Below, in pieces: positions 1 to 2,737 of a stretch of 5,411 bases of DNA (the first letter of the stretch is position 1; the number at the start of each line of letters is the position of its first letter). The translations under genes and the position numbers were made by a program. The notes beneath the pieces were generated by a model that saw only the letters and a program-made list of their open reading frames with translations, did not search any database and had not been told where the DNA came from. Where the stretch lies: positions 1-5,411 of the IMG/VR virus record IMGVR_UViG_2671180759_000018. One strand, given 5' to 3'. The stretch is from a virus (Duplodnaviria > Heunggongvirae > Uroviricota > Caudoviricetes).

Positions 1-26
1 GTAAGCGTGCAGCAAGAACCGTATTG
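1..26. repeat. Terminal inverted repeat of the IS66-family element (tnpC-distal end)
   Basis: Positions 1..8 GTAAGCGT are identical to the reverse complement of 2447..2454; imperfect similarity (CAGCA, CCGT blocks) continues to about 26 bp. Confidence 0.7.
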
Positions 27-37
27 ACGGGGATGTG

Positions 38-1576
38 TTATTCAGTCGGCAGTGCTACGCGCCAGGGGAGCAGTTCGCCGACCCGGTTTATCGGCCAGTC
101 GGCTATGACGTCAAGGACATAGCGGAGGTAGCTTTCTGGCTCCACTCCGTTCAGTTTGCACGTCCCGATCAGGCTGTACAGCAGCGCTCCCCGCTCTCCT
201 CCATGATCCGAACCGAAGAACAGGTAGTTTTTGCGGCCCAGACTGACCATCCGCAACGCATTTTCAGCGATGTTATTGTCCGCCTCAGCCCAGCCATCAT
301 CTGCATAGTACGTCAGCGCCGGCCACTGGTTCAGGGCGTATGCGAACGCTTTCGCCAGTTCTGAGTGTCGCGACAGGGTTTTCATCTTTTCACGCAGCCA
401 GCTTTCCAGGGATTTCAGCAGCGGTTTCGTTTTCAACTGACGTTCGGCAAGGCGCTGCTCCGCCGTCATTCCCCTTATCTCTGCCTCGATGGCGTACAGT
501 TCGCCGATCCGTTTCAGCGCTTCCTCCGTCAGGGCTGACGGGGTGCGAACGTGCACATCGTGGATTTTACGGCGGGCGTGAGCCCAACAGGCGGCTTCCG
601 TTATCCGGCCATCCCGGTACAGCTCGTTGAACCCGGCGTATGCATCCGCCTGCAGTACACCACTGAACCCCGCAAGATGGGTCTGCGGATGGATGCCTTT
701 TCTGTCCGGGCTGTAAGCGAACAACACCGCCGGCGCCAGCGTTGACCCGGCGTTACGGTCGTCACGAACGTAGGTCCATAACCGCCCGGTCTTCGTTTTC
801 TTATTGCCTGGCAACAGCACCGGGACAGGCGTGTCATCAGCATGGAGCTTACCGTCAGTCAGCACATAGTCCTGAAGCGCTTCTTCCAGCGGTGACAGTA
901 GCCGGCAGCATGCATCCACCCAGCCCGACAGCAGTGAACGACTCAGCTCCACGCCCTGGCGGCCGTACATTTCAGACTGGCGGTACAGCGGGGTGTGCTC
1001 TGCATACTTTGAGATCAGCACGCGGGCCAGCAGCCCCGGTCCTGCGATACCCCGCTCGATGGGCCGTGAAGGCGCGGGGGCCTGCACGATGGCATCGCAC
1101 TGAGTACAGGCATGCTTTTCACGTACAGTCCGGATAACCCGGAAGGCGCTGCGCATCAACTCCAGCTGTTCGGCGGCATCCTCACCCAGATAGCTCAGTG
1201 AGCCTCCACATTCCGGGCAGCATGATGCTGCCGGCAGCAGCCGTTTTTCATCGCGGGGGAGTGATTCGGGGAACGGTTTGCGGGTGCGGGTTTGACGCAG
1301 CGGGCGCTGCACGGCCGGGTCGTCAACCCGACCGGTAAGGGTATCACTTTCTTTCTGAAGTGCCTTCAGGTCAGCTTCCATCTGTGCGATACGACGGGAG
1401 ACTTTTTCGGAGCGGCTGCCGAAGTTCATCCGGCGCAGCTTATCCAGCTGTGCCTGCAGATGGTCTATTTCGCGTTCACGCTCGTTCAGCTTTTCCAGCA
1501 GGGCACGGTTCAGCGCCTCCTGTTCGGCAAGGAGACGTTTCAGTGCATTGATATCGTCAGGAAGTGAGCTGCTCAT
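38..1576 (-). CDS. tnpC: IS66-family transposase TnpC (512 aa)
   Basis: ORF has an N-terminal coiled-coil/leucine-zipper-like region ([19 protein letters not shown]), a CxxC...CxxC zinc-finger-like motif (CCPECGG ... CTQC) and the CwAH-rich signature ([13 protein letters not shown]) I recognise from IS66 transposases. Length and position (third gene of the IS) fit. Confidence 0.93.
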
Positions 1577-1624
1577 ACCGGGTATATTACCAGGCTCATT
1601 CAGCGTCGACCAGGATAAAGAGGC

Positions 1625-1972
1625 TTACAACATAGTCAGGGACGTAAGCAGTCTTTTAGGCTGCCGCCAGTCGATACCTTCCAGCAGCATCGCCAGCTGT
1701 GCCGGTGTGAGGAACACTTTGCCATCCCGGGCTGACGGCCAGGCGAAGCGGCCGCGCTCCAGCCGTTTGGTCAGCAGACACAGTCCATCGCCGGTAGACC
1801 AGAGGAGCTTTACCTGACTGCCATTACGCCCACGGAAGATAAAAACGTGACCTGACATCGGATCGTCTTTCAGCGTCGTCTGCACCTTTGCCGCCAGGCC
1901 GTTGAAGCCGTTTCTCATATCGGTGATGCCAGCGACCAGCCAGATCTTTGTCCCTGATGGTAATGGGATCAA
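1625..1972 (-). CDS. tnpB: IS66-family accessory protein TnpB (IS66 Orf2, 115 aa); unrelated to IS200/IS605 TnpB
   Basis: 115-aa ORF between orfA and tnpC. Its start overlaps the tnpA stop in an ATGA arrangement (1969..1972), the translational coupling typical of IS66 orfA/orfB. Confidence 0.88.
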   Translation of the reverse strand: MIPLPSGTKIWLVAGITDMRNGFNGLAAKVQTTLKDDPMSGHVFIFRGRNGSQVKLLWSTGDGLCLLTKRLERGRFAWPSARDGKVFLTPAQLAMLLEGIDWRQPKRLLTSLTML

Positions 1973-2373
1973 CGTTTGAGCTCCCGTATCAGCAGGTTCA
2001 GGATATTTTCGCTGATGGCACCATTCAGACGGAGTGATCCGTGCCGGAACGTCACTTCACAGCTGATATTGAGTGATTCAGGTGTCGCAGCAGCTACAGG
2101 TTGTGACCGGGGGGAGGTTGTAGGGACAACATCTTCGGCATCAAGTGTTATCGGGAGCAGCTCAGGCACGTTGTTTTCTGTTGTTGAAGGAGGACGTAGT
2201 TTTCCTTCGCGCCAGTACTGGCGCCACTTGAACAGCAAATTATCGTTGATCCCATGCTCACGAGCGAGTTGCGCTACGGAGATCTCTGGTCGATGCGAGA
2301 GTTCAACCATTTTGATTTTGAACTCAACGGGATAATTAGGGCTTTTTTTACGCACTGCGGTTAATGATTTCAT
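1969..2373 (-). CDS. tnpA: IS66-family TnpA (orfA, 134 aa), putative HTH DNA-binding protein
   Basis: First gene of the IS, with HTH-like segment (VAQLAREHGINDNLLFKWRQ). A GGTGGA Shine-Dalgarno-like sequence sits upstream of the ATG at 2373. Confidence 0.88.
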   Translation of the reverse strand: MKSLTAVRKKSPNYPVEFKIKMVELSHRPEISVAQLAREHGINDNLLFKWRQYWREGKLRPPSTTENNVPELLPITLDAEDVVPTTSPRSQPVAAATPESLNISCEVTFRHGSLRLNGAISENILNLLIRELKR

Positions 2374-2428
2374 GGATAGCGTCCACCATATTTGGTGTCC
2401 ACTATTCTCTCAGGAATTTCAGGATCTG

Positions 2429-2454
2429 CCAGACGGTGCTGAGACGACGCTTAC
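2429..2454. repeat. Terminal inverted repeat of the IS66-family element (tnpA-proximal end)
   Basis: Reverse complement of 2429..2454 starts GTAAGCGTCGTCTCAGCACCGTCTGG, pairing with positions 1..26. It lies 81 bp upstream of the tnpA start, leaving room for the IS promoter. Confidence 0.7.
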
Positions 2455-2737
2455 TACCCGTGCGTTGTAACTGATTAAGGGCGTTAAGCTGGCGTCGTGC
2501 TTTCACGATACCCGCATCCGCTTTACTGACAGCGTCGCGGGCGCGCTCAAATGAACGCGCCTGACGCTCGAGATTTTTGATCGCCCCCTGCGTTCGCTGG
2601 ATGGAGTCACCAAACTGCCCCATCAGGCGGCGGGCGTTTTCGGCAGGCCGGGTCAGCCTGTCAACGGCGCTGAAAGCGACCCGGATATCAAGAGTCTTCA
2701 TTGTCTGCATTCCCGCTGCGAAGTGCCGCCCGCTCAC
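2455..2737 (-). pseudogene. T: 5' fragment of a P2-like tail tape measure gene (gpT), interrupted by the IS66-family insertion
   Basis: The ORF 2402..2737 begins inside or just after the E' extension, as T does in P2-like phages, and its N-terminus resembles tape measure proteins. After about 90 native codons it runs into the IS terminus at 2454 and terminates at 2402 on IS-encoded codons (...SKRRLSTVWQILKFLRE). The true start is ambiguous (ATGs at 2737, 2710, 2701). Confidence 0.7.

Follow-up and report, generated by a model that had tools for sequence, protein, structure and literature searches.

How a P2-like tail module comes to run directly into an insertion sequence (IS), and what this means for the tail that the module encodes, is the question raised by this locus. 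By the window we mean the whole stretch of DNA that was analysed, 5,411 nt of the caudoviricete record IMGVR_UViG_2671180759_000018. A preliminary description made from its sequence alone had placed an IS66-family element at the left edge, inserted in the tail tape measure gene T of a P2-like tail module, and had located the rest of T beyond that edge on the far side of the element. Because the window stops at the IS terminus, however, it would by itself also be compatible with a deletion or rearrangement.

The element at positions 1–2454 (minus strand) is a complete copy of ISEc22, a member of the IS66 family, and all of its 2454 nt (2454/2454) agree with copies labelled ISEc22. Full-length matches with 100% nucleotide identity are annotated by PGAP as 'IS66-like element ISEc22' in many E. 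coli genomes, and the listed STEC records with 100%-identical copies contain the element at 10–23 places per record, which is consistent with an active element. The length of 2454 bp and the assignment to the IS66 family are tabulated for ISEc22 in PMC5001619. The transposition genes are co-directional with the interrupted T on the minus strand, and tnpC is preceded by tnpA and tnpB, as in the IS66 family. The gene tnpC (38–1576) is intact and encodes an IS66 DDE transposase of 512 aa, the same length as WP_000099160.1, with the domain DDE_Tnp_IS66 (PF03050; E = 9e-107) as well as the LZ, zf, and C-terminal domains (PF13007, PF13005, and PF13817); against the NCBIfam model transpos_IS66 (NF033517) it scores 466 bits at a cutoff of 180. 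The two accessory proteins are encoded on the same strand by tnpB (1625–1972; 115 aa, TTG start), identified by Pfam TnpB_IS66 (PF05717; E = 1.6e-38) and NCBIfam IS66_TnpB (NF033819), and by tnpA (1969–2373; 134 aa), an HTH protein matched by Pfam HTH_Tnp_1 and by NCBIfam IS66_ISRel24_TnpA (NF047595; 82.8 bits, cutoff 74). The start of tnpB overlaps the stop of tnpA by 4 nt.

Members of the IS66 family possess imperfect terminal inverted repeats that begin with GTAAGCG, and the ends of the present copy fit this trait. When the two ends were compared directly, the tnpC-side end (1–26; GTAAGCGTGCAGCAAGAACCGTATTG) agreed at 17 of 26 positions with the reverse complement of the tnpA-side end (2429–2454; reverse complement GTAAGCGTCGTCTCAGCACCGTCTGG). 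The first eight of these positions are perfect, and both termini open with GTAAGCGT. A general repeat search of the window did not report the ISEc22 termini, because they are imperfect. Moreover, two independent copies of ISEc22, one in an IrmA-family gene and one in cybC, end at identical bases and are flanked by 8-bp duplications of their own (AGATACGA and AGACAATA). Since the domains, the ends, the 100%-identical copies, and the independent copies all agree, the identity and integrity of the element and its boundaries at 1 and 2454 are confirmed, and the element with three full open reading frames (ORFs) and both termini that had been described at this position is indeed present.

The comparison with strains carrying an uninterrupted T, which had been proposed together with that description, places the break in T exactly at 2454|2455 and thus at the IS terminus. 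In two complete E. coli genomes, hereafter H1 and H2, the gene is uninterrupted and spans 2808 bp, encoding 935 aa. With the coordinates taken from the intact T of H1, H2, and phage P88, the 5′ fragment retained in the window extends from 2455 to 2701 on the minus strand and covers the first 82 of 935 codons and one further nucleotide. T had been said to start in overlap with E′ and to continue for about 90 codons from position 2737. The overlap holds and amounts to 14 nt (2688–2701), but the length does not: the start annotated in the intact alleles and in P88 is the ATG at 2701 and not the upstream GTG at 2737, and the gene is therefore cut after 82 codons and 1 nt. The insertion has also created a fusion ORF of 99 aa (2402–2701, minus strand), in which T residues 1–82 are followed by 17 IS-encoded residues. 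This protein is identical to WP_048238675.1 / PBN92879.1 and, according to an exact protein look-up, is recorded on a single contig, LDXB02000002.1.

The same contig leads beyond the left edge, as it contains the complete window of 5411 bases without a mismatch. LDXB02000002.1 is a 1.1-Mb contig of assembly GCA_001039225.2, which derives from STEC O26:H11 strain 36493 (ST29, stx2d), isolated from a HUS case in France in 2013. The genome of this strain has been published (PMC4520904, PMC5592225), and PacBio reads were used in version 2 of the LDXB assembly, a hybrid PacBio/Illumina assembly; the main text of the two papers makes no mention of the prophage, of IS66 or ISEc22, or of the insertion in T. 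Directly past ISEc22 lies the rest of T in the form of an 843-aa ORF, which begins 38 nt beyond the element, starts from Met93, and contains the PhageMin_Tail domain (PF10145). It is followed by gpU, an acetyltransferase gene, and tail-fibre and baseplate genes. The missing part of T thus adjoins the element on the side on which it had been expected. The 8-bp target-site duplication that had been predicted to match 2455–2462 is found as well: TACCCGTG forms both the 8 bases before and the 8 bases after ISEc22 on LDXB02000002.1, the right copy at 2455–2462 and the left copy just outside the window. The 30-mers across the right and left T::ISEc22 junctions are GAGACGACGCTTACTACCCGTGCGTTGTAA and GAGCACTGTACCCGTGGTAAGCGTGCAGCA, respectively. 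In-silico removal of ISEc22 and one duplicate yields a T of 935 codons with 0 amino acid differences and one silent nucleotide difference from the intact allele, and the restored product contains the tape-measure domain TIGR01760 (292 bits). The exact break, the duplication, and this restoration without amino acid differences bear out the reading of an ISEc22 copy inserted in the T gene of a P2-like tail module.

They also bear on the other possible origins of the break. An IS-mediated deletion or rearrangement, in which the IS is the breakpoint and the rest of T has been lost or lies elsewhere, would be favored by the exact coincidence of the window end with the IS terminus. For the matching LDXB assembly it is refuted by the 3′ remainder of T and gpU directly behind the element, by the perfect 8-bp duplication, and by the exact restoration of T, and we regard it as highly improbable. 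An assembly artefact, in which a multicopy IS was mis-threaded into T during the hybrid PacBio/Illumina assembly, has a similarly slim chance of being correct. ISEc22 is multicopy in STEC, the junction is recorded on one contig only, and the left junction is independently witnessed by one assembly only (LDXB). However, mis-threading would not produce a perfect 8-bp duplication of the length typical of ISEc22, and both junctions are base-perfect. In addition, an 82-aa 'partial' protein that is identical to T residues 1–82 and ends exactly at the insertion point occurs on 28 other draft contigs. Related isolates may have the same insertion, with their contigs ending at it, and these fragments would then agree with a break shared by independent assemblies; however, the cluster to which they belong also includes many other partial lengths.

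The remainder of the P2-like tail module is present as described, with FI, FII, E, E′, and the 5′ end of T. On the minus strand, FI (3784–4968) encodes the tail sheath protein of 394 aa with Pfam sheath domains, and FII (3272–3784) the tail tube protein of 170 aa (Pfam Phage_tube, E = 7.5e-47; TIGR01611). A gpE-like tail assembly chaperone of 121 aa is encoded at 2852–3217 on the same strand; it has a weak match to Pfam Phage_TAC_7 and is annotated as 'tail protein' in the intact alleles and P88. The E′ reading frame (2688–2924, minus strand) contains the GpE domain (Pfam Phage_P2_GpE, E = 1.7e-12), and PGAP assigns positions 2688–2843 to the 'GpE family'. Near the end of E, a TTTTTTG slippery heptamer of the P2 type in phase T_TTT_TTG (2900–2906, minus strand) provides a sequence signal for a putative −1 frameshift, which would read into the GpE domain and give a predicted E+E′ product of 176 aa. 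An E+E′ frameshift of this kind was reportedly described for P2 by Christie and co-workers in 2002. Homologs of U and D (GpU, GPD) on LDXB02000002.1 complete the P2-like tail set.

Gene D carries a second lesion. Of its 367 codons, the first 88 and 2 nt more remain in the 5′ fragment (5126–5391, plus strand), which diverges from FI just as it does in P88. This fragment is followed at 5392–5411 by the first 20 nt (TGTAGATTCAATCTGTCAA...) of a 1221-bp IS30 copy that interrupts D, with a 2-bp duplication, CT, at 5390–5391. The IS30 terminus at the right end of the window had been overlooked in the preliminary description. When LDXB02000002.1 is compared with the IS30-free H1, in which D is open over 367 codons, the insert in D measures 1223 bp (the 1221-bp IS30 and the 2-bp CT) and is bounded by TGTAGATTCAAT...ATTGAATCTACA. 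The element length of 1221 bp, the TGTAGATTCAAT termini, and the 2-bp duplication that mark a member of IS30 are all present, and PGAP annotates an IS30 transposase at the same site of D in H2.

The two lesions differ widely in their distribution. Of 5426 complete E. coli genomes, 246 carry the D::IS30 junction, among them an O114:H49 strain and the O157:H7 strains EC4115 and TW14359, whereas a junction probe for T::ISEc22 found 0 occurrences in the same 5426; the latter insertion is therefore a late, strain- or clone-specific event. Three complete E. coli chromosomes match positions 2455–5391 of the window with 100% identity, and T is intact in the two of these that were inspected (H1 and H2). 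H2 combines D::IS30 with an intact T, and its tail region is 100% identical to that of the window. Judging from this distribution of alleles, with D::IS30 widespread and T::ISEc22 not, the most economical order of events would be that an H2-like prophage was broken in D first and received ISEc22 in T later, although IS30 may instead have inserted recurrently at a preferred site in D. The insertion in T had been taken to be recent, and the 0 substitutions relative to other ISEc22 copies, the perfect duplication, and the absence of the junction from the complete genomes all agree with this. As the genes and ends of the element are likewise intact, this ISEc22 copy is plausibly not only recent but also still mobile.

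Taken together, we consider it almost certain that an active ISEc22 entered T of a P88-like prophage by simple transposition with an 8-bp target duplication, that IS30 additionally occupies D, and that the prophage has most likely lost its own contractile tail. In the course of events that we propose, an active copy of ISEc22 would have transposed into T, creating the duplication of 8 bp, and the recipient would have been a P88-like prophage (Xuanwuvirus, P2-like) residing between btuC and ihfA in an STEC of serotype O26:H11. T is thereby split after codon 82 of 935, its 5′ piece now ending in the 99-aa fusion ORF. The 3′ piece and the downstream U are cut off by 2.45 kb of IS from the late promoter of FI-FII-E-T-U, and the insertion is thus presumed to be polar on U. 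The IS30 insertion in D could already have been present or might have been acquired independently.

Tail assembly in P2-like phages depends on both the tape measure protein and gpD. T, split after 9% of its length, should no longer function and, with two null lesions in the tail genes T and D, tail assembly has most likely been lost, so that the prophage would be unable to build a contractile tail of its own. The preliminary description had added the proviso that precise excision of the IS might cure the defect; since IS30 separately disrupts D, tails would not return through the loss of ISEc22 alone, however precise, and the proviso is moot. Another P2-like prophage could in principle provide T and D in trans, and some E. 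coli genomes do contain 2–3 copies of this tail region. That the split T is still functional, its 843-aa ORF, which is open and contains the tape-measure domain, starting 38 nt past the IS and being expressed by read-through or from an outward promoter of the IS so as to support tails, deserves the least credence of all, as no such promoter is evident, the N-terminal 92 residues are missing, and tails would fail regardless owing to the independent disruption of D.

The proposed host of these insertions is probably not restricted to a tail cluster. In H2, a complete prophage extends from integrase through ogr between btuC and ihfA and contains the integrase, a repressor region, replication genes, ParM, portal, terminase, capsid, lysis, baseplate, fibre, and tail genes, and ogr; in strain 36493, the approximately 20 kb read around the window reach from J to ihfA/pheT. 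The term 'tailocin-like', which had been applied to the module as an alternative, is accordingly not supported: integrase, replication, head, lysis, and tail genes together make up a complete prophage in near-identical genomes, and a tailocin reading was rejected on this account.

It is conceivable, if rather doubtful, that T::ISEc22, in view of the 82-aa fragments on 28 draft contigs, extends beyond one isolate and is a clonal marker of a lineage of stx2-positive O26:H11 ST29, and that it represents, together with D::IS30, a stepwise 'grounding' of a P88-like prophage that is kept for its cargo (hxsABCD and the acetyltransferase). Scanned with PADLOC, the neighboring cargo genes resemble viperins only weakly, through generic radical-SAM similarity, which is no evidence of a defence role. 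In practical terms, the two fragments are now annotated as parts of one pseudogenised tape measure gene, and the T::ISEc22 and D::IS30 junctions could serve in strain or lineage typing. Judged from its sequence, the P88-like prophage of this clinical STEC O26:H11 strain, with IS lesions in two tail genes, is very probably non-infectious and in this sense 'grounded'. The case is nevertheless ordinary and already known in kind, since it involves a known IS, a known phage type, and a pathotype known for IS-eroded prophages. It adds one more example of how multicopy IS (ISEc22 and IS30) erode prophages in enterohaemorrhagic E. coli. Neither a mechanism nor a principle that would be new emerges from it, and its broader significance is small.

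Compared with ISEc22 as known from other sites, the present copy has the same length of 2454 bp, the same tnpA-tnpB-tnpC order, the same GTAAGCG termini, and the same 8-bp duplication, and differs in its insertion site only. The closest counterpart among characterized phages is P88 (Xuanwuvirus, Peduoviridae; KP063541 / NC_026014), which shares 98.5% nucleotide identity over 2937 nt, covering FI-FII-E-E′-T(5′)-D(5′). The gene order, the divergence of the FI..U block from D, and the T length of 2808 bp are the same in both. In contrast to P88, however, the present prophage has T split by ISEc22 and D split by IS30, the acetyltransferase gene in place of the invertase and alternative-fibre segment, and hxsABCD between D and ogr. 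Mitomycin induces P88, a plaque-forming myovirus whose contractile tail measures 137 nm (PMC5285337). Since the module is 98.5% identical to and syntenic with that of a plaque-forming phage, it is functional in its intact form.

The tail operon FETUD of P2 has homologous FI, FII, E/E+E′ (with the TTTTTTG site), T, U, and D genes. In P2, FI-FII-E-T-U-D form one unit that runs in the same direction as V-W-J-I-H-G, whereas here, as in P88, FI..U is inverted relative to both V..G and D. An IS-driven inversion of FI..U was considered and rejected, as more than 1300 E. coli genomes have the same layout as the viable P88, and it is normal for this group. Finally, defective, IS-disrupted prophages are known from the prophage pool of O157 Sakai (Asadulghani et al., 2009, as cited in PMC5592225). 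The inactivation of prophage morphogenesis genes by a multicopy IS in STEC is common to both, while the IS and the prophage differ here.

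The window is framed by two IS elements, ISEc22 on the left and IS30 on the right, its first nucleotide being base 1 of ISEc22 and its last lying 20 nt inside IS30. Because its full sequence is contained without a mismatch in the 1.1-Mb contig LDXB02000002.1 (STEC O26:H11 strain 36493), its edges are not contig ends within that assembly. The right-hand element splits the tail gene D: the first 20 nt of IS30 form the right end of the window (5392–5411), and the copy continues in the strain 36493 locus (L003, about 6100–7320), measuring 1221 bp with a 2-bp CT duplication. The IS30 end at this edge was absent from the preliminary description. 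The same D::IS30 junction was found in 246 of the 5426 complete E. coli genomes, in several serotypes, with carriers including O157:H7 EC4115, O157:H7 TW14359, and one O114:H49 strain. This distribution suggests either the spread of an old allele or a preferred target of IS30.

The matching locus of the complete, IS30-free genome H1 (L001) contains gene D as an open frame of 367 codons (11672–12775). PGAP, however, annotated only the last 264 of these codons (11981–12775), together with an overlapping antisense pseudogene, and this partial call despite the open frame looks like an annotation inconsistency.

Insertions by IS elements are recurrent in the P88-like tail module, as two further P88-like prophage records, NC_049344.1 and NC_049341.1, carry IS100 (IS21 family) inside the part matching window positions 2455–5391. 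The sheath gene seems to be split in NC_049344.1, where two features are annotated as “tail sheath family protein.” Contigs of draft assemblies often break within the tape measure gene T: the protein cluster of P0001 includes many “partial” N-terminal fragments of T from such assemblies, 69–112 aa long, among them one of 111 aa recorded on 94 contigs and one of 82 aa recorded on 28. These breaks are likely due to IS insertions or to the presence of multiple similar P2-like prophages per genome.

Compared to phage P88, the prophage carries additional cargo. A His-Xaa-Ser system (hxsD, hxsB, hxsC, hxsA; L001 12940–16337, L003 1688–5085), which includes two radical-SAM maturases, lies between D and ogr, whereas P88 lacks hxs genes. 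In a PADLOC scan, these genes showed no more than weak radical-SAM similarity to viperins. An acetyltransferase gene of the hexapeptide-repeat type (L001 5210–5782, L003 15928–16500), with weak similarity to EpsC/CysE/WcaB, is located between gpU and the gene for tail-fibre assembly and may be a surface-polysaccharide-modifying moron. At the same position, P88 instead contains a DNA invertase and an alternative-fibre segment.
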